DNA from: a virus
Virus record (IMG/VR): IMGVR_UViG_3300033145_003080
Location: 64,001 to 128,000 of that record
Length of the DNA stretch: 64,000 nt
Strand: one strand, 5' to 3'
The position numbers were made by a program, and so were the translations under genes. Below, piece by piece: positions 9,149 through 48,042 of this stretch; the first letter of the stretch is position 1, and each line of letters begins with the position of its first letter. The notes under the pieces are model-generated. The model was not told where the DNA came from and made no database searches. It saw only the letters and a list, made by a program, of their open reading frames with translations.

Positions 9149-9468
9149 AGGGAAAAATAAAGCAATTAAGAAAGAAGTATTTAGGTAAATTCTTTGTTCA
9201 TCATAATTCTGCCGGAAGTATTTCAATATGCCATGTGGTAAAGGTTTATTATTCTGCCGGCACATATTTTGTTCAGACAAAAGGGTTATATATGAATAAT
9301 GAATTTAATCAGAGAAAGGTTGGTACATCTGACAGCATATACCATCTTGAGGCTTTTGCTTTGAAGTTTAAAATATTGCGAGAAAGGGAGTGGGCCAACA
9401 AGATGGTTGATCAAGCTGTTGAGGATGTGAAATGTTTCTTAGACACAGAGACGGGCTATTGTCAATAA
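9145..9468 (+). CDS. Hypothetical protein, paralog A
   Basis: ATGA overlap; LRKKYLGKFF...REWANKM resembles the next ORF. Confidence 0.65.
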   Translation: MKGKIKQLRKKYLGKFFVHHNSAGSISICHVVKVYYSAGTYFVQTKGLYMNNEFNQRKVGTSDSIYHLEAFALKFKILREREWANKMVDQAVEDVKCFLDTETGYCQ

Positions 9469-9828: not shown

Positions 9829-9967
9829 TTCTATTTTAGTAAGTATAGTTGGCCTTATTTTGGTAATAACACTAGCCTGTGTCGGCTTAGTGCTTATTAA
9901 AATAAACGAGACATTGGCCAAAATAGAAATTGCAATTAATAATCACAAAGGAGGTCCGGTACTATAA
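9821..9967 (+). CDS. Small single-TM membrane protein (48 aa)
   Basis: MFNSILVSIVGLILVITLACVGLVLIKIN...; coupled on both sides. Confidence 0.55.
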   Translation: MFNSILVSIVGLILVITLACVGLVLIKINETLAKIEIAINNHKGGPVL

Positions 9968-13887: not shown

Positions 13888-15180
13888 TTAATTAGCATCC
13901 TGTAATAACCGAATAGGAAGCCCCCACCTTTTACCAATCCCACACTTGATAAAACCGGCCGAATTAAAAGCAAGTTCACGGCAATATGCAGATTGTGTAT
14001 TGTAGCTTGTGGAACTCCACCAATAACAAAACAATCCAAAACCATAAGATTGGCCATTCGCATCATAACAATAGCCGGTTGGTAGGCCTGAAAACCCACT
14101 CTTATTATTTTTTGACAAATCCATACCAACTGTACCAATACCGGTATCAGGCTCTTTCCAATCTATGTTAGCGGCTAATGATTTTGCTGTCTTATTACCT
14201 TCTGTCGTCCCATCCCAATTAAATCCATTGGCAATTAAGTAATTCTGCAAGGTATCCCATTCTCCATTGGTCGAAATGTGCCAACCTGTCGGGGCAAGCT
14301 TTCCAGTATTTACAGCATGCCAATTGTATAAAGCTCCGTATTTCTCTATACTATCAACATTGGTCGTATTATTATAATAACAACACCCGGGCGTAGTAAG
14401 GGTTGACCATGTAGTATCATTTGTTATTAATGGTATTGTTGAACCATCGTTATATTTCGTTGTACGTAAATTTTCTATTGTCCATGTTTGCGATCCTATT
14501 TTTATCGTATGATATACATTCCCATCTATATCTACTATCGTACCAGGGTGAGTTATCAGTTTTATTTCTATACCATTAGTGTCTAAATTTGTTATGACCA
14601 TTTGGTAATCCAAATATCCATTTTTAGTCACTTTTATAACATCGCCAGTTGGGATACGGCTATTTGACAGGCTCGATGGTATTGTGGTTGTTAAGTCGCC
14701 TGTGCTTATTATTGTACCAACTGACACATTACCAATAGAATGGTTCTTTAATACAAATTTATTATTACCGATTTTAATATGATAAAAATAAATACCAGCT
14801 CCAACATTAGGCAGCGCTATTGAATGTATTCCAGCATCAATAGTCTTTCTTATTTCAGAAACAACCTTTCCTTGAAGAGTGTAAGCAGCACCTTCTATTA
14901 ATGATTTTTTTTGAACATTTACACATAAAAAACCGTTAAGTATTCTTATAGCGCGTATGTAAGGCTGAGATTGCTTTTGGTCGATTATTTCAACAGCATC
15001 GACAAGTAAAAACTCTCCATTTGTTTCTGTTGTATCGCTTATTCCAACATTTTCTAATATTACATTAGCCCCGATTACAGGCATGCCGTTAATATTCGTT
15101 ACTGTACCACTGATATTAACAGCTTGAATGGTACATAGTGATATGAATATCAATTCTGCTAACAATATTTTAATAGTCAT
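13888..15180 (-). CDS. Secreted Fib_succ_major (FISUMP) domain protein
   Basis: Signal peptide; DIDGNVYHTIKIGSQTWTIENL, GALYNW, LAPTGWH, GFSGLP.G, YWWSST; start set at SD-led ATG 15180. Confidence 0.88.
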   Translation of the reverse strand: MTIKILLAELIFISLCTIQAVNISGTVTNINGMPVIGANVILENVGISDTTETNGEFLLVDAVEIIDQKQSQPYIRAIRILNGFLCVNVQKKSLIEGAAYTLQGKVVSEIRKTIDAGIHSIALPNVGAGIYFYHIKIGNNKFVLKNHSIGNVSVGTIISTGDLTTTIPSSLSNSRIPTGDVIKVTKNGYLDYQMVITNLDTNGIEIKLITHPGTIVDIDGNVYHTIKIGSQTWTIENLRTTKYNDGSTIPLITNDTTWSTLTTPGCCYYNNTTNVDSIEKYGALYNWHAVNTGKLAPTGWHISTNGEWDTLQNYLIANGFNWDGTTEGNKTAKSLAANIDWKEPDTGIGTVGMDLSKNNKSGFSGLPTGYCYDANGQSYGFGLFCYWWSSTSYNTQSAYCRELAFNSAGFIKCGIGKRWGLPIRLLQDAN

Positions 15181-15439
15181 AATATCCTCCTTAAATAATA
15201 AAAGCAACGGATTTTTATCAGCTGCTTACTATCCAATCTTCCTTATTCCCATGATACAATACCGCATATCTCCAAATCTTCAAAAGGCCAAATAGAATAA
15301 CCGTTTACAGGAGCTGTCGAGATTAGATCAAGATTAGTGCTTGAGGCATTCCCTTCCGCAGTTGATGCATTCATTACAATTGTAACACAGATACAACTCC
15401 TCACAAAATTTCTCCATATCACTTTCGAACCATGGCATT

Positions 15440-21995: not shown

Positions 21996-22868
21996 ATGCC
22001 ATTTCGTTTGCCAAATGAATTTTTAAGCTCACCGGATGATAATAAAATACGCCCATACACTGTTGGTACAACAGAGCATGCAGGAACCGTTGCAACAATA
22101 GTCCTTTATACAACAGCGCAGGGTTTTTTGTCGGATGATGCTCTCAAGACGAATGACTATCTTACTGATTTATCAATGAGCATTTCCGAATTAGAAGCTG
22201 GTTCAATTAGTGGAGACGAGCAGGCTCCTCCTTCAATACCAGGCGGCAAGATTGCTTTAATTTCTCTTGATGGCAAGCAGCCGAATAATTATTATGGTGT
22301 ATTTAATAATTTTTCATTGATAAATGTTCAAGAAGCTCATGGTGAAATAGTCAAGTTGCATCAAAATTTCTCAAATGGGTGGAATGCATTTTTCTTTGGA
22401 GAAAAGCCTGCGATATACAACTTTTCTGGAATGTTCCTTGATACTCGAGAATATCCATATTACCAGGAATTCATGGTTGCGTATAATAAATATCTTCGTG
22501 GCAGAAGATGTATTGAAAACAATATGCAATTAAAAATAATGTATGACGGCAAACTCGTAGATGGCTACATGCTCAATATCAGCACCAGTACAACTGGAGA
22601 TTTGGAACAGAGCAAATCATTCACATTTTCAGTTCTTGTAAGAGCATCGCGATGGATCAGGATGAATCTTATTCCAGTTTATTCTTCTCATGACAACAGA
22701 TACATAAGTGTTGATGAATTTAATAGTATGAGAAATGCTGGCAGGTTGGCTGGCGATTTCTTAAGTGGATATATCGAACATATACAAGTTGACAAGAACG
22801 ATCCAAGTGGAACTGTAACACCAACGGATATTGTTTCAGCACCATCGACTAATCTGAAAGATACTTAA
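21996..22868 (+). CDS. Putative tail tube initiator / baseplate protein
   Basis: Position after the TMP-like gene; beta-rich FFFGEKP.IYNFSG...FTFSVLV. Confidence 0.4.
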   Translation: MPFRLPNEFLSSPDDNKIRPYTVGTTEHAGTVATIVLYTTAQGFLSDDALKTNDYLTDLSMSISELEAGSISGDEQAPPSIPGGKIALISLDGKQPNNYYGVFNNFSLINVQEAHGEIVKLHQNFSNGWNAFFFGEKPAIYNFSGMFLDTREYPYYQEFMVAYNKYLRGRRCIENNMQLKIMYDGKLVDGYMLNISTSTTGDLEQSKSFTFSVLVRASRWIRMNLIPVYSSHDNRYISVDEFNSMRNAGRLAGDFLSGYIEHIQVDKNDPSGTVTPTDIVSAPSTNLKDT

Positions 22869-25822
22869 TGGCTGAAAAGAAAGGTTTTAGTTATTCATTT
22901 AAGATGTATATGGAGGGAATTGCCGTTCCTTTCAAGGGTGCTACTATTGTCTGTACTCCTAATGGTCAGGAGGCGAATATAAATGTATATTCTAATAAGC
23001 AACTTCTTGACATTAAGCCAAAAACCGCCGTACAAATATTCTATCGTGAATGGTCTACTCGAGAGAAAAGGCCTGCATGGAGATTGGCGTTTGATGGATT
23101 CTTTTCGTGCTTCTATAAAGTAGATCAAGCAACTGAAGGGCGTGGATTGGGAATGGTATGTCGTGACTTTCGAATGGATATTCGAAGGGCGCCCGCTGCA
23201 ATAGCCTGGGAAGCGGCTGATGCTTTAACCACTCGCAATTTTTATAATTCGATGGGGATATTTCAGACATTTGTCATAAAAGGAAAAACGCAAAAACAAG
23301 GTACTGATATCAGGGTATTTGACAATACAGGACTAGCACCTTTGTCCTATACTCTTGGCCTTATTGCCGGCAGCGCAGGATACAGCCGCACATCAAACAA
23401 GATGAAAGGGACGAAGAAGAGTACGAACACTATTGCTGATGAGGGGAGCTTCGATCAACAGATTGGTAAAATACAAAAAGATGAGAAAGCAAATAAGACA
23501 CAGCAGGATGGTGAAGATGCTTATTCTGCTGAGTTTGCCAGTGCAACACCATCAGATAATGGGGTGGCAAATTGCGGATTCTATCTGGATGCATTAATTA
23601 GGGGTATGTGGCTAGAAGCTGTCGGTGGTACGGCAGTAGGAACATTCCTTAATAAGCGTATACGGCTTGATAAACGTTTTCTTGTACCGGTAAATAAAGC
23701 GGGATATAACTTTTGGAGCAAACAGAGTGGAAGTGTGCATATTGGTTCTCACCTGATGGGCAATTCACGTTTCTCGAGTCTCGAGGCGGCCATAATGAGA
23801 TTGGCCGGCGCATTTTCTACTCGAGTGTATTCATGCAGCACGCCATCATTAATACCAATAGGCAACAAGGCTGATGGAAAACCGTATGATGCAGTTGAGT
23901 ATGTTATGGATTCAAAGGTAAGGAAGTTTCTCGTAGACAGGGCATCTGCCGAATTCGGTGGTAAATATATATTAAATGAATCAATGCTTTTGCCTCCACT
24001 CGAGTTTACAGCCCCACCGAATTGTAATCTTCTTTTTCCACCAATGTATGACAGGGTTGAATGGCAATATGATATTGATGCCGATGTTACTCGAGGGTAT
24101 TTTGATCAAGTCCACATGCTTTCGTCGCCAGGTGGAAACGCCCTTGCATCACCCAGCGTACAGGTTCCGAACGCTTTGTTTAATTTGATGAATAGTGATG
24201 GTGATCGGGCAAAAGATATGACAAAATCGAAAGGTACCGTTGACGGTACTGATCCGTCTAACAAGAAAGTTGCCAATGCTACAAAAGCTAATGTGACAGA
24301 GAATAAAAAGAAAAAACAAAATGCAGCCAGTAAATCAGTTAAGACAAAAGGGACAGATAGATATGGAAGAATAAAACCGCCACTTACACTTGAGGAAAGG
24401 TATAAAGGAATTAATGTCATATTTGGTAGCGTGTCTCATGAACTGGCAATGAATGATGCAATCAATGTTGTTAAGGATAGGCAGGCGAATAAGAAGGCCA
24501 GGGACAAACTTGATAGTGAGATAGCAAAACTGGAAGATGTTAGAGATAAAGCGTTAGGAGCTCTTGAAATATCACCTGAAAACACAGGGTTTGCTGCTGA
24601 AAAAGCAGATGCTGTAAGAAATAAAATTAAAGAAAAACGTGCTGCCAGAGATAAGCTTAAAGGTCATAGGGGTATAAATAATAAAACTAAAAATGCCCTA
24701 AAACATCATGCGCTTTTAAAGTTTCTGAACAGAAAGTATGCAGGGCGAGTTGTGACGGTTGATATGGCTTTTAATCCATATATCATGTGTGGTTTCCCCG
24801 GGGTAGTAATAGCTGACGACATGGGGTATGGCGAAGAGTCGATGAAGACTATTCTTGGAATGGTGCAGCAGGTAAAACATACTTTATATATTACACCACA
24901 AAGTGCAGAGGCGAATACATCTATTGTTATGAATAATGCTCGGTTCGAAGACGAGCCAACTGATATGAACGAACATGGCTCTCCGATGTACATGAAAGCA
25001 ACTGTTCCGTCAGATGCTGAGATAGACATTGATACACTCGAGTACAAAAACAACTACTTTATCCCTGAGCCGAAAGCTCCGGTCAAACGTATTCTTAATT
25101 CGGATTATTATGATTTGAATGATGAGAGCCAGCTACATAGTGAATATGTATACGCAAAAGATTTACTTAGCTTAACAGCACAGGATATTGCTAATGGAGA
25201 ACGTAATCAAATTTATATTGACGAAGGGTATGAGCCAACACGAATAGCAAAGTTCTATCGTGATGTGTTTGGCCATAAAAAGCAGCATTTTATGATAGGA
25301 AGCGCTGTTGACCCGAATAATGAAACAGAACGAATAAATTTTATGCATGACACGGTCCATGAAGCCTTACAGTATTTACGTGATTCAAAACCTGAGTTGC
25401 TTCAGAATTATGAGGATTGTCTTGATTTTATAAAAAGAAATGTTTGTTCTGCCGATGCTTTCTATCAGGGAATATTAGGTTTATCTATTAGTGATAAGGT
25501 TGCTGATGATGAGGGCAATCAAATATATGAGTATGTGAACTATCCGGCTTTGGGAGATGAGCTTGGAACTGAGATTCTTTTTAATGACCACATAATTCAC
25601 AATCGGTATTATGGTGTAACGACCACTGATTGGGATAGTGGAAATTTGGATGGTTTGAAGCAGAAAAATGGTGGTACGATGTATGAACCAGGTCAATTCA
25701 GCAGCATCCGTGAGCACATGCCGGTTACTGCCTTTATTCAAGAGCGCAGAGACGCTGTTGAGATATATGTGTCTAAAGTTCTGCAGCGGGTAAGTGGAAC
25801 ACAGTATGCACCGGTTTATTAG
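22868..25822 (+). CDS. Putative baseplate hub protein
   Basis: 984 aa; FNPYIMCGFPGVVI...GMVQQVKHTL hub-like end motif; synteny. Confidence 0.5.
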   Translation: MAEKKGFSYSFKMYMEGIAVPFKGATIVCTPNGQEANINVYSNKQLLDIKPKTAVQIFYREWSTREKRPAWRLAFDGFFSCFYKVDQATEGRGLGMVCRDFRMDIRRAPAAIAWEAADALTTRNFYNSMGIFQTFVIKGKTQKQGTDIRVFDNTGLAPLSYTLGLIAGSAGYSRTSNKMKGTKKSTNTIADEGSFDQQIGKIQKDEKANKTQQDGEDAYSAEFASATPSDNGVANCGFYLDALIRGMWLEAVGGTAVGTFLNKRIRLDKRFLVPVNKAGYNFWSKQSGSVHIGSHLMGNSRFSSLEAAIMRLAGAFSTRVYSCSTPSLIPIGNKADGKPYDAVEYVMDSKVRKFLVDRASAEFGGKYILNESMLLPPLEFTAPPNCNLLFPPMYDRVEWQYDIDADVTRGYFDQVHMLSSPGGNALASPSVQVPNALFNLMNSDGDRAKDMTKSKGTVDGTDPSNKKVANATKANVTENKKKKQNAASKSVKTKGTDRYGRIKPPLTLEERYKGINVIFGSVSHELAMNDAINVVKDRQANKKARDKLDSEIAKLEDVRDKALGALEISPENTGFAAEKADAVRNKIKEKRAARDKLKGHRGINNKTKNALKHHALLKFLNRKYAGRVVTVDMAFNPYIMCGFPGVVIADDMGYGEESMKTILGMVQQVKHTLYITPQSAEANTSIVMNNARFEDEPTDMNEHGSPMYMKATVPSDAEIDIDTLEYKNNYFIPEPKAPVKRILNSDYYDLNDESQLHSEYVYAKDLLSLTAQDIANGERNQIYIDEGYEPTRIAKFYRDVFGHKKQHFMIGSAVDPNNETERINFMHDTVHEALQYLRDSKPELLQNYEDCLDFIKRNVCSADAFYQGILGLSISDKVADDEGNQIYEYVNYPALGDELGTEILFNDHIIHNRYYGVTTTDWDSGNLDGLKQKNGGTMYEPGQFSSIREHMPVTAFIQERRDAVEIYVSKVLQRVSGTQYAPVY

Positions 25823-25830
25823 GAAATAAC

Positions 25831-26523
25831 ATGCCAACCGACCAAGAGAACATACTGCAATGGCAGAGGACGAAAGATCCGCGGTTGTTTGCTGATCTTA
25901 TTATTCGTTATCAGCCTGTGGTTAATAAGGTTGTTGGGCAATACCGCACTGTCGGCGTTTCCCCTGCCACGTTGCGTGCAGAGGCGACTACCCAACTCAT
26001 TAAATCCTTCAAGTCTTATGATCCGAAGCATGGTACCCAGCCGACTACGCACGTATGGAATAATTTGAAAAAGGTACAGCGTGTAGCATCTGAATCTCTT
26101 ATGTCAGGCCATATCCCTGAGAATAGAGCATTAAAGCGATCTACTTTTACCATTGTCAAAGATAATCTCGAGGATCGCCTCGGTCGGGAGCCGAGTACTT
26201 CTGAAATTGCTGATGAGATAGGATGGAATAAAAAAGAAGTTGCTCGTATGGAGCATGAACTTGGAGGGGAAGCAACTGCATCGAAAGCTTCTTTTGATTT
26301 TTATGGCAATGCGATAACTAAAGAACATCCTGATAAAGCGCTTGCTGATTATATGTATTATGAATTGGCTGGTCCGGACAAAGTTATTTTTGAACACACT
26401 TTTGGCTATGGTGGAAAGCGGATATTGAATAACAAAGAAATTGCGGGAAAGCTTCATAAAAATGAAATGTGGGTACATCGAGCGAAGAAGCGATTGTCGC
26501 AGAAAATTCAATCATATAGATAA
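25831..26523 (+). CDS. Phage-encoded sigma-70 family factor (FliA/WhiG-like architecture)
   Basis: Region 2 (LIIRYQPVV...SYDPKHGTQPTTH), region 3 (LGREPSTSEIADEIG), region 4 HTH (NKEIAGKL). Confidence 0.85.
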   Translation: MPTDQENILQWQRTKDPRLFADLIIRYQPVVNKVVGQYRTVGVSPATLRAEATTQLIKSFKSYDPKHGTQPTTHVWNNLKKVQRVASESLMSGHIPENRALKRSTFTIVKDNLEDRLGREPSTSEIADEIGWNKKEVARMEHELGGEATASKASFDFYGNAITKEHPDKALADYMYYELAGPDKVIFEHTFGYGGKRILNNKEIAGKLHKNEMWVHRAKKRLSQKIQSYR

Positions 26524-26532
26524 GGAGAAAAT

Positions 26533-27075
26533 ATGTTAGCGCCTGAAGTTTTAAAATCATTCAGTAACCATGTAGACATGGATAAGGTTGCGTACGGTGT
26601 GCAGAGTTATTATGCACATAAGGGTGGTGAGGTTGGGTCTTATGCGTCTCAAACCTATCCAGGGAAAGGGTTTAAGAAGAATGTTGAGATGGGAGTTGAC
26701 AGGTATGGTAGGAGTGTTTATGACAGGTGGTCACCATACAGCAAAGGGTCTTCTGATTATAATACTGCTGTAGAAAATTTAAAAGGGTCAAAGTATGGCA
26801 GGCGCTCTTTGCGGCGTGCTGGGGTTATTAAAAGAGAACCACTTTCAGGCGGATATGCAAAACCTGCCATTGCTGGTGCGGCTGTTGGTGGCACGGTTGG
26901 AGCGGTCGCTGGAGCCCACGGTGCTCTCCGTGCTGCACATCGTATATATAGAAAAACAGGCGTTCTTCCGATGCGAGCCGCAGGAAGAGTCGCTAGAAGG
27001 GTTGGTGTTGGCGGTGCCGTGCTTGGTGCTGGCATTGGACTGGCATCGAGATTTATAAGTAACAGAACTGCATAA
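26533..27075 (+). CDS. Basic protein with glycine-zipper C-terminus (cargo 1)
   Basis: N-terminal SF....DMDKVA motif; GAAVGGTVGAVAG and GGAVLGAGIG zippers. Confidence 0.7.
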   Translation: MLAPEVLKSFSNHVDMDKVAYGVQSYYAHKGGEVGSYASQTYPGKGFKKNVEMGVDRYGRSVYDRWSPYSKGSSDYNTAVENLKGSKYGRRSLRRAGVIKREPLSGGYAKPAIAGAAVGGTVGAVAGAHGALRAAHRIYRKTGVLPMRAAGRVARRVGVGGAVLGAGIGLASRFISNRTA

Positions 27076-27085
27076 AGGATATTAA

Positions 27086-27154
27086 ATGCCTCCTCCAAAA
27101 CAGGTACATCGGGCAAAGAAACGGTTGTCATAGAAGATTCAAACTTATCGATAG
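27086..27154 (+). pseudogene. Chimeric remnant: first 6 codons of the 29271 gene plus last 17 codons of the sigma gene
   Basis: Reads MPPPKQ|VHRAKKRLS*KIQTYR*; 16/18 nt match to 29271-29288 and 40/51 nt match to 26473-26523. Confidence 0.9.
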
Positions 27155-27161
27155 GGTTGAT

Positions 27162-29258
27162 ATGCATATTGCAGATATATACAACACGGCGTTTGTAGAT
27201 GAGCTTATGAAAGTGGCGAAATTTAAGGGAACGTTGTTGCCACATCAAGTTGAAGCGCTTGAGAAGTTCAACAAAGAAGACGCTATTCTTCTTTTGCATC
27301 ATTTGGGATCTGGTAAAACAATAACATCAATTGCCGGCACTGAAGATGGAGGTTCTGTTGATGTGGTTGTCCCAGCTTCTCTCAGAGAAAATTATAAAAA
27401 GGAATTGGCTAAATTTACAACACCCGGCGGTACAAAAAGAAATGTTATTTCTTATAATAAATATGTAAAAGAAGGACCGACGCCGGGAGCTAAAGCTGCT
27501 GTGTTTGATGAGCCTCAAAGGATTGGTAGGCATGGCACATTAACATCCCAAACTGTAGTTGGTTCTGCGCTATTGTACCCAAAAAGGATGCTTTTAACAG
27601 GAACTCCAGCGACAAATTATCCTTATGAACTTGCTCCTATTATAAGGACATTAACGCCTGAAGCAAAAAACATACCACTTGATCCAATTGCGTTTAAAAG
27701 TAAATTTCTCGGAGAAAAAAAGATTCGATTGTCACCACTTAAATATTTAATGGGGATGAAGCCTGGTGTTGAATTTTATCCGCGTAATGTTGAGGAGATC
27801 AAAGGCGCCATTAAGGGGAAGGTTCATTATTACAAACCTGATGAGGAGGGTTACCCAGAGCGTATTGATGAGGTTAAAAGTGTAGAAGCGTCCCCAGAAC
27901 AGGTAAAGTATTATAAATATGTTACCAAGCGAGCCAATCCGGTTGTTGCTTTAAAAGTGCGCATGAACATGCCTTTGTCTAAAAAGGAATCAAAGGAGTT
28001 AAACGCATTCATGACTGCCGCGAGACAAGTCTCAAATACAACAAAGCCATATGGTGGTAAAGAGCAATTGTCTCCAAAGTTAAAGACTGTTATTGACGAT
28101 TTTGAGGAAAGTGTTAATAAAAATAAAAAACACAAAGGTATTATATATTCTAATTATCTTGGGGCAGGTGTCGATATTATTGCTGAAGAAATGGAAAAGC
28201 GTGGCATTCCTTACACACGTTTTACTGGAAAATTAAATGATAAACAAAAAAAAGAATCTGTTGATAAATACAACAAAGGCGAAGTAAAGGCAATACTTGT
28301 AAGTGGGGCAGGGTCTGAAGGGCTTGATTTAAAAAATACTCGTTCTATACAAATAATTGAGCCACACTGGAATCAATCGAGAATAGAACAGGTTGTCGGA
28401 AGGGGTATTAGGTACAAGTCGCATGAGGGACTTCCTAAGTCTGAAAGAAAAGTTGATGTAATAAAATACCAAACAACGATTCCAAAAAAAATTATGCAAA
28501 AGATTTTTAAGAAAAAATCTGATACATCGGCAGATCAATATCTTGAAACTTTAAGTAAAGACAAACAGAGGCTTTTAGACAAATTCCTTGATATTTTTAA
28601 AGAAGAAGGAGTGCAGAAATCGGCTTTCGACATGATGTGTGAAAAAAAATACCAAGCAGTTTTTAAAGATGAGCTTGAAAAAATAGCTGCTGTTAATCCT
28701 GAAAATTATTTATATCATTATTTTTCTCCAAAAAGCATTAATAAAATGGTTAGTTCCGGCGGAATAGTGGCAACCCCAAGAAAAGCTTTTGGTGGTAAGA
28801 AAGTAACTGGTATTAGTACTACTAGAGACCCAAAGGCCACATTTTTTAAATCTCTTCCCACAAAAGGTGATGTGGGTTTCTTAAGGTTTAAATTATCAAA
28901 AGATATAATAAATAAAAATTATAAAATAAAACCTTTTGACGACATTGGGCTAAGAAGCATCGGAAAGTCTGAAGCTGAAGAATTAATTATTTTAAAAAAA
29001 ATAAAAGGCAAGCAATCAGTTGTACCTTTTTCAAAAATAAAATCAATTGAAGTTGCCGATCCTAGCGGGTTAAAAAATTATTTAAGAAGTGGCTCTATTG
29101 ATGTAAATAAAATCCCGCAGATTGATTTTTCAAAAATGGAAATATCAGGTGAAAATATGGAAAATATTATGGGGGCGCTTAAGCCGAAAGGGTCCTCAAA
29201 ACAAAGAATTAAAAATATACGAAAAATATTTAACGTTATGAAAAAATTAAAAAAATAA
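27162..29258 (+). CDS. SF2 (SNF2-like) helicase fused to a putative ADP-ribosyltransferase-like domain (cargo 2)
   Basis: HHLGSGKT, FDEPQ, LTGTP, AGSEGLDL, EPHWN..RIEQVVGRGIR..SH; C-terminal YLYH...GISTTRD...EAEE. Confidence 0.8.
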   Translation: MHIADIYNTAFVDELMKVAKFKGTLLPHQVEALEKFNKEDAILLLHHLGSGKTITSIAGTEDGGSVDVVVPASLRENYKKELAKFTTPGGTKRNVISYNKYVKEGPTPGAKAAVFDEPQRIGRHGTLTSQTVVGSALLYPKRMLLTGTPATNYPYELAPIIRTLTPEAKNIPLDPIAFKSKFLGEKKIRLSPLKYLMGMKPGVEFYPRNVEEIKGAIKGKVHYYKPDEEGYPERIDEVKSVEASPEQVKYYKYVTKRANPVVALKVRMNMPLSKKESKELNAFMTAARQVSNTTKPYGGKEQLSPKLKTVIDDFEESVNKNKKHKGIIYSNYLGAGVDIIAEEMEKRGIPYTRFTGKLNDKQKKESVDKYNKGEVKAILVSGAGSEGLDLKNTRSIQIIEPHWNQSRIEQVVGRGIRYKSHEGLPKSERKVDVIKYQTTIPKKIMQKIFKKKSDTSADQYLETLSKDKQRLLDKFLDIFKEEGVQKSAFDMMCEKKYQAVFKDELEKIAAVNPENYLYHYFSPKSINKMVSSGGIVATPRKAFGGKKVTGISTTRDPKATFFKSLPTKGDVGFLRFKLSKDIINKNYKIKPFDDIGLRSIGKSEAEELIILKKIKGKQSVVPFSKIKSIEVADPSGLKNYLRSGSIDVNKIPQIDFSKMEISGENMENIMGALKPKGSSKQRIKNIRKIFNVMKKLKK

Positions 29259-29270
29259 TAGGAAAAACCA

Positions 29271-31337
29271 ATGCCTCCCCCAAAACAAGCATGTGAAACT
29301 ATACTTAACACGCAAATGGCTGTGGTTAAGATTATTAAGCGTGTGCGTGAGATTTCTCAGAAACTTCGCACGCTACTCGAGAATAAATCTAAATTAAAAT
29401 ACGGCATTATTAATCTGCTGGATGTGATAGGGGCAGAGACGCTCACCGCTATTACTTCAGTAGCAGCATCGGCAGCAAAAGCTATACTTGGTGCAATGTC
29501 GGGTATGGCCAGCACGCTGCTCGAGTCAATTCTATCCAGCCTTCTTAAGATATTGCTTGCAAATCCAACTGCTATATTTTCTCTTGTTGCTATCCCCCAT
29601 AGCCAGGCAATTAAAGCCGTTACTGAAGAGAGGCTTTTGCTTCAACGCGCACGAAGGAATATGCGAACTATTTTATATATTATTCTTAAATGGACACAAG
29701 GGGTAAGCGGTGCCCGGTATTATAAACAGTTAAAGGCCGCTCTTCCTTATATCCAGAAAGCAATAGCATTATCAGTTGATATCATCCATGATTTGGAAGG
29801 AGAGCCGACAAAAGATAGTGAGGTAAGGAATGCCAAATTTAATGAGTCAAAATACATAGTAATGCAATGGAATCTCGAAATGGCAATTGATATAACAAAG
29901 CCTGATTCAATTGTTGATACTCGATTTCAAATTACAAAGAAAGTTGAACAAAACCGGAATAGACGGTATAGGCAACTTGCCGAAAAGATAGAGGATAATT
30001 ATAAAAAAAGACGAAAAGAGCTTGCTCGGTGGTATAGTAAACAGATATCACAAATTGACCATGAGAGCGAAAATTTATCAACCGCATTAAAGATGGAGCG
30101 GATACGACATGAATATGCATTTAAAAGAAAGATAATAGAAACTGAGCGCAAAGAAAAGCTCCATGCGGCTGAATTACAAGCGGCTTCAGAGTCTCTTGTT
30201 GACAAAAGTGCATATTTAAATGCTATTGGTGGGATTGCCGCAGAGTTTTCGAATGATATGATAAATCTCGCTGCTAATCTGGCTGAGTTTGTTGATAATG
30301 TGAAAGATGCGTATACAACATACCGGCGTAGTCAAAATTTGTGCAATGCTATTTATAGAATCAGAAATCTTATTACCAATCTGATTAATGAGATTGTTGA
30401 TATATTACGCAGAACTTCGAATGCATCAGCATCTGCGGCGATCAAATCTCTCGAGACAGCGCAGTCGATAATGGAGGTGGTGGAAGAGGATTTTATAGAT
30501 TCAACAGGAAGGTATGAAAATACCTCTGAGAAAATAAGTTCTTCTGAACTGGCCGGCGCAGTTATTTCAGGCTATGGTTTATTATCTTCAGCAGATGCGC
30601 TTCTTGACAGTACTATAACCAAAAGCCTTATCGATTTAGTAAATTCTGATGATGTACTTCAGACTGCAAACGAAGATTTTGAAGCATTTCATCAGGCTTT
30701 AACTCAGATTCCGGACTGGGATGGTCAACTAAATGTGTGGGCTGTAACCCCCACTGACAGTGCATTCAGTCCATATATACAGATGATAGCTGATTCAATA
30801 TCTGTTTTGGCAAAAGTTCCTGTACTCGCCATGTCAAACGATGAAGATGCCAGAATTGAGGTTACCAGAATATTAAAAGATATTAATAATACTTTTAGGG
30901 CTCTGTTTAATCATAATGCAATAGTAAGTAACACGCTCAATTCTTATGTGCCATATATGTCGTCTGAAGCTGGTAATTTGACGAGAATTTTGGCAAATGC
31001 AGGATTACTCGAGGAATTCGCAACTGGAATGAGTATTGCAGCAATGACTGCAGATATTGTAACATCTATAATAAAAGGTGGTCTCGATGATACTATGCCG
31101 ACATATGCCAATTGCCGTTCAGCTTATCCTGAGTTGTATGATAATGCTGACGCTGCAGAGGCTGCTGCGCTTGGTAACGCGAGCATTACTCCGGCGGAAG
31201 TAGATTTAAATTATATATCGAAAGTTGAAGATAAAGAAGTGCAGCGGCTTGGTGGTGATTCTTTTGCGAGGAACTGGGATATGAACAGTTCTCTAACAGA
31301 TGATAGTTTTGCTCGACCGGGCTCTGATGAGGGATAG
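29271..31337 (+). CDS. Large helical/coiled-coil protein, probably virion-associated
   Basis: 688 aa; lies within the tail/baseplate run. Confidence 0.6.
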   Translation: MPPPKQACETILNTQMAVVKIIKRVREISQKLRTLLENKSKLKYGIINLLDVIGAETLTAITSVAASAAKAILGAMSGMASTLLESILSSLLKILLANPTAIFSLVAIPHSQAIKAVTEERLLLQRARRNMRTILYIILKWTQGVSGARYYKQLKAALPYIQKAIALSVDIIHDLEGEPTKDSEVRNAKFNESKYIVMQWNLEMAIDITKPDSIVDTRFQITKKVEQNRNRRYRQLAEKIEDNYKKRRKELARWYSKQISQIDHESENLSTALKMERIRHEYAFKRKIIETERKEKLHAAELQAASESLVDKSAYLNAIGGIAAEFSNDMINLAANLAEFVDNVKDAYTTYRRSQNLCNAIYRIRNLITNLINEIVDILRRTSNASASAAIKSLETAQSIMEVVEEDFIDSTGRYENTSEKISSSELAGAVISGYGLLSSADALLDSTITKSLIDLVNSDDVLQTANEDFEAFHQALTQIPDWDGQLNVWAVTPTDSAFSPYIQMIADSISVLAKVPVLAMSNDEDARIEVTRILKDINNTFRALFNHNAIVSNTLNSYVPYMSSEAGNLTRILANAGLLEEFATGMSIAAMTADIVTSIIKGGLDDTMPTYANCRSAYPELYDNADAAEAAALGNASITPAEVDLNYISKVEDKEVQRLGGDSFARNWDMNSSLTDDSFARPGSDEG

Positions 31338-31385: not shown

Positions 31386-31630
31386 GTTACTGGCCACAAA
31401 ACATATTTGCGGTTTGAAAACGGCATTTCAATGCAAACAGTGACTAGCACAAGAGAAGTTCAAAATGAACAATATCTACGACGATAAACAGCTACAAGAA
31501 CGGAATCAGAGTGCTCCCACAGCTCTGCCCACTTCGGGGATTGCCGATCCTGATGTGTCTTTTGATACTAAGCTGAATTGTCATGTGCGAGTGGGTAATA
31601 CTGGTTATAGTACCAGGCCGAATGTCGGTA
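31386..31630 (+). ncRNA. omegaRNA (HEARO-like) scaffold of IsrB; ends approximate
   Basis: GTTACT..AGTGAC(TAG) stem, GCAC/GTGC and CCCAC/GTGGG pairings, CTGGT/ACCAG hairpin, immediately 5' of the PLMP domain. Confidence 0.65.
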
Positions 31631-32652
31631 AACATACTATATTTGTTTTAAATGTTAATGGTAAGCCATTAACCCCAACAACACCAGCAAAAGCAAGAAA
31701 GTTATTAAAAGGAGGTAAAGCAAAAAAATACTGGAGTAAGTTTAACACATTTGGTATTCAACTTGTTGATAAAACAAGAGAAGAAATACAGAAAACTGTA
31801 CTTGGATATGATCCAGGTAGTAAATTTGAAGGCGTTTCTGTGGTTTGTGGTGATGAGAATAATTTGTCTGTAAAATTAAATTTACCTAATAAAACAAATA
31901 TTGTTAATAAATTAAAAGAGCGCAGACAAATCAGAAGGAATAGAAGATATAGAAAATGTCGTAGAAGAAAAGCAAGGTTTTCAAATAGAAAAAGGAATGG
32001 TTTTATCGCCCCATCTCAATTAGTTATAGTGAATTCAAGATTAAAAATTTTAAAAGAATTTTGCAATATTTACCCAATATGCAATGTAGCTATGGAAAAT
32101 ATAAAGTTTAACCATCTAAAATATAGATGGGGTAAGAATTTTTCAACAATGGAAATTGGCAAACAAAAAATAAGAATTTTTTTCAAAAATAGAAATATTG
32201 AAATATTTGAATATGATGGTTTTAAAACATCTAAAATAAGAAAAAAATATGGATATAAAAAGACATTTATAAAAAGTGCAGATCATTTTACATCACATTG
32301 CTCTGATTCATTATCCCTTGCTATTGAGATAAGCTGTAAAAAAAGAATACATGAAGGATTGTTTCTTATAGTTGATGACACTTATCGTTGTGTAAAAAGG
32401 AAACTTCATGACAGACAACCATCAATAGGTGGGATAAGAGAAAAATATTCTCATGGAAATGTAAATGGTGTTAAAAAAAGTATAATTATTGGCGCAAAAA
32501 ACGGCAATATAGGACAATTGTGTGGCGAAACGAATGGTCGTTTTAGATATTATGATTTGGATGGTAAACGAAAAATAACAAAAACAATATCTTGGATAAA
32601 TAACCAATTTAAAACAAATACAATAAAAGAAGAACAATTTTACGCGGCATAA
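31465..32652 (+). CDS. isrB: IsrB-type OMEGA RNA-guided nickase (RRXRR family, no HNH)
   Basis: GKPLTPT (PLMP), LGYDPG (RuvC-I), RRQIRRNRR bridge helix, AMENI (RuvC-II), SHCSD (RuvC-III); no HNH insert. Confidence 0.85.
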   Translation: MNNIYDDKQLQERNQSAPTALPTSGIADPDVSFDTKLNCHVRVGNTGYSTRPNVGKHTIFVLNVNGKPLTPTTPAKARKLLKGGKAKKYWSKFNTFGIQLVDKTREEIQKTVLGYDPGSKFEGVSVVCGDENNLSVKLNLPNKTNIVNKLKERRQIRRNRRYRKCRRRKARFSNRKRNGFIAPSQLVIVNSRLKILKEFCNIYPICNVAMENIKFNHLKYRWGKNFSTMEIGKQKIRIFFKNRNIEIFEYDGFKTSKIRKKYGYKKTFIKSADHFTSHCSDSLSLAIEISCKKRIHEGLFLIVDDTYRCVKRKLHDRQPSIGGIREKYSHGNVNGVKKSIIIGAKNGNIGQLCGETNGRFRYYDLDGKRKITKTISWINNQFKTNTIKEEQFYAA

Positions 32653-32677: not shown

Positions 32678-33121
32678 ATGGATATTGATTTTTTCACAGA
32701 CTTAAGAAGCCAGTTTAAAATTAGCATTGGTGATAATCCTCAAGGTGTTGAGGGAAACCGTGCGCTGTTAAACCGGTTTGAGATAACATTTTTGACAAAA
32801 ACAAAGATGTTTCTATTTGATGGTAAATTAATTACAGATGATTATGCTGGTGATGCTGAAAAATATATTAATAAACCTCAAGTGCTAAACGACCCACAGA
32901 GCATAGCAGGAGGAGTTTCGGTATCTATTGACCAGACAGTGGCGTCTATGAAAAGTGATGAGCCGCCAGGAGTTCCAAATACTGAAAAAATTGAAAGTGC
33001 AGAGCTTATTGATATAGAAATTATTGATGACATTGTTTTTGCAAAAATACAGGTACACCCTGTAGAAGTTGAACTTTATCAGGATCTTATGTTTAATTTG
33101 CCAATCATCAAAAAGGATTAG
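32678..33121 (+). CDS. gp25-like baseplate wedge subunit
   Basis: 147 aa acidic; VEG..ALL..F...FLT pattern; upstream of the baseplate-J-like gene. Confidence 0.55.
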   Translation: MDIDFFTDLRSQFKISIGDNPQGVEGNRALLNRFEITFLTKTKMFLFDGKLITDDYAGDAEKYINKPQVLNDPQSIAGGVSVSIDQTVASMKSDEPPGVPNTEKIESAELIDIEIIDDIVFAKIQVHPVEVELYQDLMFNLPIIKKD

Positions 33122-33158
33122 AAATAATCATTTAATATTTCTATATAAAATAAAAAAA

Positions 33159-34337
33159 ATGATACAGAAAAAGTCGTATAAATTTAGAATTTATCCAAAT
33201 GACACTCAAAAGATTTTGTTGAATAAAACGTTTGGTTGCGTGAGATACATGTGGAACCAAATGGTGGAATCATTTAAAAAAAAAGAAAACCATAAATCGG
33301 CAACTATTTTACGCAATGAAATTGAATGGTTAAAAGAAGTGTCTGCAGCATCAATTCAACAAAAAGAAATTGATTTTAGAGAGTTTAAAAAACAATTCTT
33401 TTCTAAAAATAGAAAAAGAAATATTGGGAAACCTTCATTTAAAAAGAAGTATCAAAAGCAGTCGTATAGACTTCCCAATCAGAAATTTGTTTTAGATCAA
33501 GGAGAATCAAAAATTAGGTTGGAGAAAATAGGTTGGATAAAAATAATATTAGATAGAAAAATACCTAAACATATATATTATTTATCGGTTACCATTTTGA
33601 AAGATAAGGTTGGTGATTATTATGCGTCTATTCTTGTTAATGAAGAAATTAAAGAACTTCCTAAAACAAATAGGGTGGTTGGTGTTGATTTAGGAATAAA
33701 AGACCTTATTACCACCTCTGATGGATTGCAGGTAAAAATGTTTGATGAAAGCGAGAGCCAAGCTAGGATTAAACGTTTATCTAAACATTTATCAAGGAAA
33801 GTGGTGGGGTCTTTGAGGTTTAATAAACTTAAAAATAAAATAGCAAAAACTCACAGAAAGATTGGTAGAAAGCGCAATTGGTTACATCACAATATTTCTT
33901 TATTTTTGATTAAAAATTATGATGAAATAATTTTAGAAGATTTGAATGTATCTGGGATGATGAAAAACCGCCAATTAGCAGGATTTATTCATAGACAAGG
34001 ATGGTCATCTTTAGTAAACCAGATCAATTATAAATCAAGATGGTATGGTAGAAAGAGCAAAAAACTTGATCGATGGTTTCCTTCTTCTAAAACATGTTGT
34101 GAATGTGGCACTGTTAAAAAAGGTTTAAAATTGTCAGAGAGAGTCTACGAGTGTGAATGTGGTAACAAAATTAACAGAGACTTTAATGCATCTCTAAATA
34201 TTAAATCCGCAGGAGTTACTACGGATCAACGGTCGTTGATGGAATGTGAGACTTTTAATCCTAAAAAGCAATCTTTAGAGTTAAAAGCAATTCCAAGTGA
34301 AATGATTAATCTAATAGAAAAGAATAAAATTCTATAA
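33159..34337 (+). mobile_element. tnpB: IS200/IS605-family TnpB RNA-guided nuclease, no TnpA adjacent
   Basis: KSYKFRIYPN HTH, GVDLGIK, ILEDLNV, PSSKTCCECG...CECG, NRDFNASLNI; start revised to ATG 33159. Confidence 0.92.
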
Positions 34338-34348
34338 AGGATGTAACT

Positions 34349-37300
34349 ATGTTTGATTTTTGGGCTTTTTTGAGAAAGAAATGGTCTGAATATTCGAAGT
34401 CTAGGGGCCAGAAGGGTACTATGATTGATGACCTTGCTGTAAAACCGGCCGGGCTGATCTTGGCTAATTTCTACAACGCCCTTGCTGGACAGAGAAGGGT
34501 TAATAACATCTCGCTTTGGAAAACAATGACCGATGAAGAGCTAAACTTTTTTGGGAATAAATTTTTTACTAAGAGGATAATGGGTGATTTCTCTATTGGA
34601 TCGGTGCGTGTTTACTTCAATGAGAAAAAAAATATCGAACTTTCTACTATAGCCCGGTTTGTCTCAAATCGAGGTTTGCAGTACCGCCCTATTCAGCCTG
34701 GAAAGATAGCAGGTAGCTCATTTAGCAGTTCAACAGATAGGATAGCACTTTATCATATCGACATACCAATTATTGCAGTGTCAAAAGGTGATGAGTACAA
34801 CACTGATGCGAATGAAATAGTCCAACTTATTAATATCGACTTTACTTATCATTCAGCAACAAATCCTGAAGATATAATTCGCGGATCAAAATATGAGACA
34901 AATGAAGAATATTTCAATCGTCTTGTTTATACTGTGAATGACCGCAGTATGATGAATAAGAAGAGTATGATGGTTCTTCTTCCCGAATTTTTTCCAGTTA
35001 TTAATGCAATGTATATAGCAGGTGCTGGTGACCGATATATGCAAAGAGATTTAATTGCCGGCGTTGACCTGTCCCTTCCTTATAAAGAAGCAACCTATCT
35101 TGGCAAGTTAAAAGGTGAGAATATAGTTAAACATATTGGTTTTTATGGTATATTCCCACCGAATGTAGGAAGCCTTCAGTCGAACAGGTACTGGGGGCCA
35201 CATTCAGCGGTATCAGAATACCGCTATCCCCTAACTATAGAACAATCATCATCTGCATTCAGCCCTGAACAGACAGATCCGCGGCTAAACGATCCTGCAT
35301 TCCTTGGGTTTCCACTTGACCAGGAGTGTGTCGATAATATGTATAAAGGTCTTTACTTTAACGATTATAAACGATTTATGGAAGTAAGAACTGAAGATCT
35401 GTTTAATATTGTTGATGAAGAGGTTGGGTTTACACCAGTGCTACCAGATGTAACATGGAAGTTTGGTGCGCATGGACTTATGCCGGGTAATGTTGGCAGG
35501 CTTGCTGACAATGTGCAGAATATAAATGTGGTTAGTTTTTATGACACTGAAATCAGACTTGCCGGTGGTGCGTATAATTCAATTTCTGTCGGCAAGGACA
35601 TTCTCAAACGTACCGGGGTAAAATTAACCGGTTCTTTTATTTGTCCCGAACCTGCTGATGAAAATTCTCCAATACTGAATAGCAATCTGCAAATTATGAT
35701 TGGTGGTATAAATGATTTAAATCTTGTTGATGGATATACTGGTGTCGGGTTTGGCATTAGAATGACTGATATATATGATGAAGGTGATATTGATGTGCCG
35801 AATGCAGTTATATATTTTGCCCATAATGAAAAGTATGGGACCGCCCAGGTTTATGCGACTGATTATGATATCAGTGACCATATTTCAGTTTCAGATATAG
35901 GAGCCCTTGCCGAAAAAGAATTTAGAATTCAGCCGAATATCGAATACGAATTTGAGTTTATTATTTATGATGATTTAAGATTATCGCTTTATTTCAACAA
36001 GACAAGTGAAAAGCAACCGTCAGATCCATATGAAAAAGAGAATGAATTTCATTTCGAATTGCCTCGTAAAGTTTTGGGAATATTTTCTGACGAAAGCAGA
36101 CAGGGTTTATTGTCAACGAGCAATATACGATATGGTACAACAATGAAGGCGACACTTGACACAGAGTCTCTCGTTTCAGAGGATATATGGCGAATAAATG
36201 ACTTAAAAGCTTTTGATATGAATCCATCGAAAGCAATGGCGTTATATGCTATAAATATGGATGATATAGAAAGCCCCATATCTGTCTTTCTTCGAGCATT
36301 TGGTTCGAGTGCTATCGATAATGCCCAGGCTGATGGCTACCAGGTGTTCTTATGGGATAAGGAGGTTCAGACAATAGCCTCTGGGTCGTCAGAGCTTACT
36401 CGAGGAGGTTGGGCTGAAGCAAACGGTATATCCAACCCAGATAGTTCAAAAAGTTCTGCCCTTGGTCTTTTAAGGCATGACATACAAAACATGGATCGGT
36501 ACCTGGTTGATAGTAAGTTCGGCAAAAACATTTTTATCATGATATTAACCACAGGTGTTTCGAAAGGGTCAATACGATATAATAGAGATATTCGAGATGA
36601 TGTCCATTCTTTTCTCCGTGTTGATTATATAAAAGCTGAGAGTATGAATATAGCATCTTATCACGCAAATAATAAAGCAGACATACACCTTGCAACCCTT
36701 AATAATTCGGAAGAGTATGAAGTCGTTACTACAACTCTCACCAAACAACCTAATGATACTTATTTTGAAATGAGTCTCGAGAATAAATGTAAAATGCCTG
36801 TGGTTGAGATGGTGTCTGTAACTATAGGTACCACTGTTAGTGACACTGAAACTCTTGCAGAAACTGAATATTCTATGATTGACTCAGACGTTTTATTGCT
36901 TAATTCCTCAAAAGAAAAGAAGCATATAACTTTGAATGAATCTGATGCTGATACAATAACAGTCGAATATAGAACGTATCCGGAAATTGAACGTATTCAG
37001 GACTTTTTTGAAAGCTCTATATATCAAAAAATTTATGGCGACTTTCTCATTAAACACAAAATGCCATGCGATCTTGATTTTACAATTTTTTATACCGGAG
37101 ATATCAACGATGATCAATTGATAACGGAAATAAGAAAATATGTTGATGATAATATTGATGGGGTGTTTTCTATACGGAATTTTATCAGCTATCTCTATAA
37201 TGAGGAGCTGGTTAACAATATCAAGGAACCTGTCGAGATATCGTATACTAAATGGAACGATGAGTGGGAGCAAGAAACGGGAACCTTTACCGATAAGCTC

Positions 37301-37357
37301 CCAATAAGGCCAATCGGTTTTTTTAGGATTGTAAGCCTAAACGTGCAGAAGTTATAA
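34349..37357 (+). CDS. Baseplate J / gp6-like wedge protein
   Basis: DDLAVKP, SIGSVRVYF, IAVSKGDEYN, TNP....G...ETNEEY..R, VGAGD-like motif. Confidence 0.7.
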   Translation: MFDFWAFLRKKWSEYSKSRGQKGTMIDDLAVKPAGLILANFYNALAGQRRVNNISLWKTMTDEELNFFGNKFFTKRIMGDFSIGSVRVYFNEKKNIELSTIARFVSNRGLQYRPIQPGKIAGSSFSSSTDRIALYHIDIPIIAVSKGDEYNTDANEIVQLINIDFTYHSATNPEDIIRGSKYETNEEYFNRLVYTVNDRSMMNKKSMMVLLPEFFPVINAMYIAGAGDRYMQRDLIAGVDLSLPYKEATYLGKLKGENIVKHIGFYGIFPPNVGSLQSNRYWGPHSAVSEYRYPLTIEQSSSAFSPEQTDPRLNDPAFLGFPLDQECVDNMYKGLYFNDYKRFMEVRTEDLFNIVDEEVGFTPVLPDVTWKFGAHGLMPGNVGRLADNVQNINVVSFYDTEIRLAGGAYNSISVGKDILKRTGVKLTGSFICPEPADENSPILNSNLQIMIGGINDLNLVDGYTGVGFGIRMTDIYDEGDIDVPNAVIYFAHNEKYGTAQVYATDYDISDHISVSDIGALAEKEFRIQPNIEYEFEFIIYDDLRLSLYFNKTSEKQPSDPYEKENEFHFELPRKVLGIFSDESRQGLLSTSNIRYGTTMKATLDTESLVSEDIWRINDLKAFDMNPSKAMALYAINMDDIESPISVFLRAFGSSAIDNAQADGYQVFLWDKEVQTIASGSSELTRGGWAEANGISNPDSSKSSALGLLRHDIQNMDRYLVDSKFGKNIFIMILTTGVSKGSIRYNRDIRDDVHSFLRVDYIKAESMNIASYHANNKADIHLATLNNSEEYEVVTTTLTKQPNDTYFEMSLENKCKMPVVEMVSVTIGTTVSDTETLAETEYSMIDSDVLLLNSSKEKKHITLNESDADTITVEYRTYPEIERIQDFFESSIYQKIYGDFLIKHKMPCDLDFTIFYTGDINDDQLITEIRKYVDDNIDGVFSIRNFISYLYNEELVNNIKEPVEISYTKWNDEWEQETGTFTDKLPIRPIGFFRIVSLNVQKL

Positions 37358-47685: not shown

Positions 47686-48042
47686 ATGAACATAATAAAT
47701 AAAAGCATTGATGATTTTATTGATCGAAAAACGTCCAAGATTACTTTGCTGGGCAAAGAACTGAACTGCACTTTCTCAGCGATACCGGCCAAGGATAAGT
47801 TCGACAATGATATTTTCGAAGTGGATAGAGAAATAGTAAAAGCCTACTACCCAGAGTTTAAGACATTTGCTAAACAGGTATTTGGTATTGAAAAAGATAA
47901 TGGGTTTACTGATACGGAGGGCGTATTTCACCCAGGTACTGGTGAGGACATTATTCCTTATGACTCAATGTACCTTGCTGATGAAAGACTTTATACACGA
48001 GACTATATGATCAAAAATATAATGAAACAGAGGGCTGAATAA
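47686..48042 (+). CDS. Hypothetical protein
   Basis: 118 aa; TAATG-coupled to the giant gene. Confidence 0.6.
   Translation: MNIINKSIDDFIDRKTSKITLLGKELNCTFSAIPAKDKFDNDIFEVDREIVKAYYPEFKTFAKQVFGIEKDNGFTDTEGVFHPGTGEDIIPYDSMYLADERLYTRDYMIKNIMKQRAE

Follow-up and report, generated by a model that had tools for sequence, protein, structure and literature searches.

A fused gene start and gene end between two cargo genes in a variable slot of a large uncultivated phage

The spacer between the two cargo genes

How did two accessory genes come to be stacked between the same pair of conserved neighbors, and why does the spacer between them read like a piece of each neighbor? The question is raised by a 64,000-nucleotide (nt) stretch of viral DNA (hereafter the window; positions 64,001 to 128,000 of IMG/VR record IMGVR_UViG_3300033145_003080), which is part of a 149-kb, metagenome-derived virus record that is ~80% complete. 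On the + strand of the window, a sigma-like factor gene of 230 amino acids (aa; 25831..26523) is followed by a first cargo gene, named ORF180 (26533..27075), by a second cargo gene, a 698-aa open reading frame (ORF) with a helicase core (27162..29258), and by a 688-aa gene whose product begins with MPPPKQ (29271..31337; hereafter the MPPPKQ gene). The gap between the sigma and MPPPKQ genes is referred to as slot 2; the MPPPKQ gene is its conserved right flank, and the sigma gene is a conserved anchor between this slot and a slot 1 on its other side. The spacer between the two cargo genes carries a scar that was probably left when two related phage genomes, with different alleles of the same slot, recombined once, in frame and without homology at the join.

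The 69-nt spacer (27086-27154) consists of the start of the MPPPKQ gene fused to the end of the sigma gene. Its first 18 nt (27086-27103; ATGCCTCCTCCAAAACAG) match the MPPPKQ start at 29271-29288 in 16/18 positions, with both mismatches at third codon positions, and match the MPPPKQ start of one relative (L001) in 17/18. The following 51 nt (27104-27154) align without gaps to the functional 3' end of the sigma gene (26473..26523, + strand; the first copy of the repeat) at 40/51 positions. This second copy translates as VHRAKKRLS*KIQTYR* (asterisks denote stop codons) and the sigma end as VHRAKKRLSQKIQSYR*. Ten codons differ between the copies, eight of them synonymously (including TAA>TAG), one by an S>T replacement that takes 2 nt, and one by CAG>TAG; of the individual nucleotide differences, eight are at third codon positions and three at first or second ones. 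The original prediction, made from the letters of the window, had recognized in the spacer the first codons of MPPPKQ followed by the last codons of sigma, and we confirm this reading with the same 16/18 and 40/51 matches and the same codon changes. When the 51-mer was compared with both strands of the entire 149-kb genome, no further site exceeded 28/51, and 30 shuffles gave chance maxima of 27-31/51. The best non-self match of the 18-mer, which directly adjoins the 51-mer copy, was the 16/18 site, and a repeat search ranked 26472-26525 versus 27103-27156 (80%) as the top direct repeat. Derivation of the 18-mer from the sigma start was also considered and rejected (10/18, versus 16/18 to the MPPPKQ start).

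Homology to the MPPPKQ start extends into the ribosome-binding region from ~27072 (TAAAGGATATTAAATG versus AAGGAAAAATATTAATG / AAAGGAATAATTAATG in relatives), and the AAGGA..TTAATG upstream of the displaced start matches the MPPPKQ upstream regions of L001, L007 and L013. The right end of the first allele is thus a displaced ribosome-binding site with the first 6 MPPPKQ codons (27072..27103, +), and the left end of the second is formed by the displaced last 17 sigma codons, now with a premature TAG (27104..27154, +). The displaced stretch including the ribosome-binding site spans about 83 nt (27072-27154), and the scar between the cargo genes spans 27076-27161. Because the G at 27103 fits either parent, the junction lies at 27102-27104 with a microhomology of 0-2 nt, and there is no extended homology where the MPPPKQ start meets the sigma end. 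The junction creates an in-frame mini-ORF of 15 codons (MPPPKQVHRAKKRLS*; 27086..27133, +) that is probably non-functional.

We compared the locus with 15 distinct related loci, on contigs of up to 208 kb, that had been retrieved with the MPPPKQ and sigma proteins as queries. None of the 15 has the scar, and the spacer is therefore not a shared ancestral feature. A back-translated junction (MPPPKQVHRA) found no other contig in IMG/VR, and the relatives hold no second copy of the sigma end or of the MPPPKQ start (best non-self matches 24-28/51 and 16-21/30). A candidate second sigma-end copy in L008 (MCTSRAEKKLSKQYR) was rejected (tblastn E ~2, no nucleotide match ≥35/51). The relatives thus do not all have the same two genes and the same spacer, an outcome that would have refuted the original prediction; slot content varies among them and the scar is confined to the window. 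Sequences that are separate in the relatives are newly adjacent in the window only, as in mosaic joints made by illegitimate recombination.

How the junction arose

Of the sigma ends sampled, that of the window itself gives the displaced copy its best match (40/51) and 13 others give 24-37/51, so the suggestion in the original prediction that it might be closer to the sigma end of another phage was not borne out. True orthologous sigma ends within the close clade match one another at 27-40/51, and the copy has diverged to a degree like that between sigma ends of different phages, with no indel relative to the window's sigma gene and with its frame intact. We simulated how often 11 hits would leave no more than two non-synonymous codons. 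This outcome was seen in 0/5000 runs when all hits were neutral, and had a probability of P 0.01 for an in-situ duplicate in which the dead copy took its expected 78% share of the hits. Because the differences are codon-patterned and the simulations disfavor drift in a dead copy, we argue that most of the divergence would have arisen inside the working sigma gene of another phage; only ~2 changes (Q>stop and S>T) would then need to postdate the join. The predicted derivation of the second sigma end from a related phage is thus supported by its codon-patterned divergence, but no donor is present among the sampled relatives. A change of nearest relative across the junction was tried as a test for a chimeric backbone and proved uninformative, as L012 is nearest on both sides and the close relatives are about equidistant.

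These observations suggest the following sequence of events. One parent (D) would have carried sigma-ORF180-MPPPKQ and the other (R) sigma-helicase/ART-MPPPKQ, where ART stands for an ADP-ribosyltransferase-like domain at the end of the helicase ORF. A crossover or template switch would have passed from D, after MPPPKQ codon 6, into R at a point 17 codons short of its sigma stop, and the recombinant would have kept both cargos in the order [sigma]-ORF180-[MPPPKQ start / sigma end']-helicase-[MPPPKQ]. The partners were presumably two co-infecting phages (neither parent was found), and the event may be fairly recent, with ~2 disabling changes since. The mini-ORF would first have ended at the old sigma stop, which lies 7 nt 5' of the helicase start, and may have kept translational coupling to that start. 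Such an in-frame mini-ORF would help the recombinant survive, as ribosomes would have kept arriving just upstream of the helicase gene.

Several points weigh against this sequence of events. Neither parental arrangement (sigma-ORF180-MPPPKQ or sigma-helicase) occurs in any sampled relative, and in L003, L007 and L013 the helicase gene lies behind another gene and not directly after sigma. The sole ORF180 homologue, together with all other genes that share its N-terminal leader (leader A, described below), lies upstream of sigma in the relatives, and parent D therefore requires an earlier relocation of ORF180. The flanks on both sides of the junction share the same nearest relative, with no visible change of ancestry across it, and the join appears in the assembled metagenome record alone. 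Finally, when the simulated hits were split equally between the two copies, the silent-site excess was not significant (P 0.19), and an old duplication in situ would likewise predict that the copy is nearest to the window's own sigma gene.

The last two points bear most directly on an in-situ tandem duplication of a segment that began with the last 51 nt of the sigma gene, enclosed one cargo and ended at MPPPKQ codon 6, after which one cargo copy was replaced and the sigma-end copy drifted. This history would yield the same junction geometry, but it needs at least two events (duplication and then complete cargo replacement), and, by the simulations above, a dead copy is unlikely to have diverged by 22% without an indel and with non-synonymous changes in only 2 of the 10 altered codons. 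The divergence also equals that between different phages, and we regard a duplication as unlikely. A metagenome assembly chimera, in which two co-occurring strains were misjoined at 27103/27104, deserves consideration because the record is metagenome-derived and several relatives come from the same studies, so related strains do co-occur. Graph assemblers, however, join sequences at shared words of at least 21 nt. The two sides of the join share at most 1-2 nt, the longest exact matches between the paralogous copies are ~8 nt, and no assembler-size word is shared at the join, which makes a chimera very improbable; nor would a misassembly be expected to fuse a gene start to a gene end in frame, or to leave the genome collinear with relatives on both sides.

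An identical product could also result from integration of a cassette, either as a circle of [sigma end'-helicase-MPPPKQ start] recombining within the MPPPKQ start or through double-strand breaks made by the RNA-guided nucleases IsrB or TnpB. Insertions of an IsrB-like and a TnpB gene are indeed unique to this genome and lie 2.2 and 3.8 kb downstream, yet no evidence ties either to the site. The circle would require two steps, its formation and then integration via ~30 nt of homology, and there is no integrase, no attC-like inverted repeat and no second example; we consider a cassette highly unlikely. Still less credible is that the spacer is a selected functional element (i.e., an upstream mini-ORF or RNA signal controlling helicase expression). 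The mini-ORF has a good ribosome-binding site and an in-frame start codon, and the original stop closely precedes a helicase ATG with only a weak ribosome-binding site of its own; against this, the spacer occurs in one genome only, already has a premature stop, and contains no promoter or terminator signal above background. An out-of-register crossover that stacked two alleles, as originally proposed, is thus the simplest origin given the fragments, their order, the slot polymorphism, the divergence and the lack of homology at the join.

Variable slots and their peptide leaders

Relatives share the gene order 984-aa gene, sigma, MPPPKQ, gp25-like and Baseplate_J-like, and the variable genes fall into three hypervariable slots within it; the phages with this module form a large uncultivated family with genomes of 150-210 kb. 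Slot 2 is empty in 5 of the 15 relatives, holds remnants in 1, and contains 1 to ~12 genes in the rest. It is empty in L009, L016, L021 and L022 (in three of these four, the sigma TAA overlaps the MPPPKQ ATG as TAATG) and is a 41-nt gap in L012, whereas only remnants are left in L001. There is one gene in L005, a 133-136-aa gene plus the helicase gene in L003 and L013, 3-5 genes in L011/L017, 4 in L018, 5 in L020, 8-9 in L008/L015, 2 genes followed by 11 small ones on the other strand in L023, and about 12 on the P0123 contig. Slot 1, between the 984-aa and sigma genes, is equally variable, from empty in the window (8 nt) to as many as 9 genes in L018. Slot 3 lies between the gp25-like and Baseplate_J-like genes, at the position taken by TnpB in the window, and holds genes with leader B (see below) at L018:13535-14175 and L021:8634-9005. 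The idea of a fixed slot with swappable cargo, which formed part of the original prediction, therefore holds insofar as the slot is polymorphic, but relatives carry 0 to ~12 genes there rather than different single ones.

Slot genes in the relatives include a LigD phosphoesterase, an ATP-dependent ligase, an HExxH protein and many glycine-zipper proteins, and Pfam assigned no family to most cargo bodies. Slot 2 of L023 encodes a hairpin protein of the Acb2/Tad1 family (9185-9400; 48 bits) and an AAA_33/Zeta-toxin-like kinase (8713-9168). Acb2/Tad1 proteins are a known family of anti-CBASS/anti-Thoeris sponges. The slots are accessory islands that serve partly in counter-defence.

Most cargo genes start with one of two conserved leaders. 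Leader A (MITPEVLKSFGN..; M-I-T-P-E-V-L-K-S-F-G-N-x-I-E-K) was found in 11 copies and, in the relatives, only in slot 1. Leader B (hydrophobic-x-x-I-Y/K-Q/E-A-A-F-x-D-E-L-E-K-I-A, or IYQAAFxDELEKIA) was found in 38 copies. All copies are on the + strand, within slots, and on otherwise unrelated protein bodies, and the E and K of the leader core are invariant in 30/30 copies. The possibility that the leaders are a genome-wide signal was rejected, as a hidden Markov model and regular expressions found them solely in slots; the whole genome that includes the window has only three tagged modules. Two observations on leader-bearing genes may be added. In L001 (8838-9058 and 9832-9912), only decayed leaders are present (one leader-A stub of 17 codons and two remnants of leader B, an ORF of 56 aa and a stub of 26 aa), which suggests that cargo bodies were deleted while the leaders persisted. 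In L003 (8564-9328) and L013 (6703-7467), a 254-aa leader-A protein has an H-E-L-G-H (HExxH) zinc-protease-like motif and no Pfam family.

Leaders of unrelated genes are 83-93% identical in DNA over 30-57 nt, and the breakpoints of clean swaps fall exactly at them. L003 and L013 are nearly identical through the end of leader A and then unrelated up to exactly the sigma ATG, and a block of homology between L015 and L017 starts at leader B and ends ~50 nt into the next tagged gene. Routine exchange in the slots therefore probably proceeds by homologous recombination, with the leader and the next conserved sequence (another leader or the start of a flanking gene) as arms. The proposal that flanking gene ends serve as homology arms is accordingly half right: the start of a flanking gene may be one arm, but the other is the N-terminal tag of the cargo. 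The scar is an exception to these leader-bounded swaps in that it is a non-homologous join.

Both cargo genes of the window carry leaders. ORF180 begins with leader A (MLAPEVLKSFSNHVD), continues into a small globular part and ends in a C-terminus that is rich in Gly and Ala and resembles a glycine zipper. It has no Pfam or PHROG match, and a word-index search of a 5.8-billion-protein index returned only itself; tblastn on the related loci found one homologue, the L013 gene upstream of sigma (44% over 106 aa). In the 698-aa ORF, leader B (27162-27218) precedes a helicase core of the SNF2 type (27217-28618), which matches Pfam SNF2-rel_dom and Helicase_C as well as PHROG 62; a second leader B follows at about residue 497 (~28644-28691), and an ART-like domain then extends to 29258. 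Homology to the helicases of L003 and L013 covers only 27217-28618, i.e., the part between the two tags, and the C-terminal modules beyond it differ. A helicase query of IMG/VR for close loci yielded none that could be confirmed. In the ART-like domain, the motifs L-Y-H and I-S-T-T do not vary among six homologues, and an acidic E-E-L-I stretch that comes after them is nearly invariant. Its structural model has a predicted local distance difference test score of 68, and its top Foldseek matches are all of the ART fold (Tpt1, DarT, cholera A1), although weak (E 0.009-0.05, template-modeling score 0.33-0.42).

The same domain occurs as a stand-alone tagged gene in P0122 and as the middle of a three-module protein in P0123 (LigD_N - tag - domain - tag - HExxH). 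Fusions with internal leader B thus include helicase-tag-ART-like (window), LigD_N-tag-ART-like-tag-HExxH (P0123) and LigD_N-tag (L018:8687-9394), and modules found in fused ORFs are separate tagged genes in other phages (such as P0122). A short stretch in common with the ART-like module was also noted in P0124, a 3206-aa protein.

The leaders are most likely a peptide signal that sends diverse accessory or counter-defence proteins to a common destination. Tags are found at N-termini as well as between fused modules, which suggests that this signal may be read in either position. By analogy with the T4 capsid-targeting sequence and the loading signals of contractile injection systems (see below), our favored guess is that it causes proteins to be loaded into the virion and delivered together with the DNA, or else that it is a processing signal. 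Extending this guess, a widespread family of uncultivated 150-210 kb phages might carry a recombination-shuffled protein arsenal (SNF2 helicase, ART-like enzyme, LigD phosphoesterase/ligase, HExxH protease and glycine-zipper proteins) that is loaded into the particle via a new amphipathic tag and delivered with the DNA, the tag doubling as homology arm and polyprotein separator. We put this forward as a tentative and rather doubtful reading; if it were true, the scar would record allele stacking as one way in which such arsenals grow. Some slot genes (Acb2/Tad1, the AAA_33 kinase and the LigD-ligase) have no tag, which runs counter to it. No member of the Peptidase_S77 or S78 prohead protease families was found in the 80%-complete genome, a search that is uninformative because the S77 control was silent.

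Known parallels and the surrounding genome

The type of scar described here is already known, whereas the tagged three-slot locus is a new variation on the T4 internal-protein theme. In mycobacteriophage Island3 (genes 67/68), ~50 bp from the 3' end of the upstream gene occur a second time next to a gene insertion that is not shared by relatives, and the authors were undecided between intra- and intermolecular recombination (PMC3029335). The window likewise has an extra gene beside a duplicated ~50-bp 3' gene end, but in it a gene start directly abuts a gene end, which allows both parental alleles to be reconstructed, and its join lacks homology, in contrast to the homologous exchange at tags that shuffles the rest of the locus. 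Mosaic joints rarely keep enough of both parents to reveal how they arose; this one displays both alleles together with the in-frame, non-homologous join between them.

Orphan toxin modules of Rhs and contact-dependent inhibition (CDI) systems offer a second parallel: displaced alternatives accumulate downstream, still joined to part of the conserved upstream gene, and this part is usable as homology (PMC3967940). The window also stacks alternative modules with a retained piece of a conserved upstream gene. In contrast to Rhs/CDI, this piece is the 3' end of a separate neighbor gene and not of the delivered protein, the locus belongs to a phage, and the 51-nt, 78%-identical piece is a poor recombination substrate; slot cargo genes are also single and consecutive, without paired small immunity-like partners. 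Unlike integrons, the slots have no integrase in or beside them and no recurrent inverted repeat at cassette ends, and their boundaries are coding leaders.

T4 Alt is a packaged ART, and the cargo of the window includes a candidate ART-like enzyme. According to PMC3012670, which cites Repoila et al. 1994, T-even internal proteins are diverse and share only a capsid-targeting sequence. The slots resemble them in encoding diverse accessory and counter-defence proteins with a short conserved N-terminal peptide, at a locus that differs among related phages. The tag here, however, is a different and longer sequence (~17 aa) that also occurs between fused modules, and the slots lie in a tail/baseplate module beside a sigma-like gene and not near head genes. 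Payload genes of extracellular contractile injection systems are marked by N-terminal loading signals (PMC11495950), and the locus shares with them variable genes near contractile-tail and baseplate genes and an N-terminal signal. Here, in contrast, a replicating phage is involved, no Pvc15-like AAA ATPase was found in the locus (no search was aimed at one), and tail loading is conjecture.

Hypervariable slots in this large environmental phage family were previously undescribed, and they contain at least one known counter-defence family (Acb2/Tad1). The locus is thus a convenient place to seek new counter-defence or host-takeover proteins, and a natural system for asking whether proteins are directed to the particle of a giant phage by a short peptide tag.

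The genes that frame the slots are conserved in all relatives. The 984-aa virion-module gene on the left of slot 1 (X984; 22868..25822, +) has orthologues with 45-81% aa identity and no Pfam or PHROG match. The sigma-like gene matches Pfam Sigma70_r3 at 26.4 bits (cut-off 25.3) and PHROG 351 (sigma factor, E 3.7e-6), with homologues in 198 clusters at E<1e-20. MPPPKQ orthologues are 33-77% identical in aa sequence, and the product is probably a tail or baseplate component. Downstream of the MPPPKQ gene lie a 147-aa gp25-like gene (32678-33121) and a Baseplate_J-like gene (34349-37357), and these two assignments place the locus in the tail/baseplate module of a large phage. In the window, the gp25-like gene is flanked by an RRXRR (IsrB/IscB-type) nuclease gene (31465-32652) and a TnpB gene (OrfB_IS605, Cas12f1-like_TNB; 33069-34337). 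Both are absent at this locus from all 15 relatives, in which the MPPPKQ, gp25-like and Baseplate_J-like genes are contiguous; a TnpB gene is present in L020 at a different place. A blastn search of the locus against 50,697 GenBank phages gave no match.

Three further ORFs of the window were noted outside the locus. A 687-aa ORF (9967-12030) has a LAGLIDADG_3 domain in the middle of the protein (residues 376-433) and may contain an intein or an inserted homing endonuclease. The structural region includes a single ORF of 3196 aa (48042-57632). On the - strand, a 439-aa protein (13888-15207) combines Fib_succ_major and CarboxypepD_reg domains, which may hint at a Fibrobacterota/Bacteroidota-type host or at a receptor-binding function.

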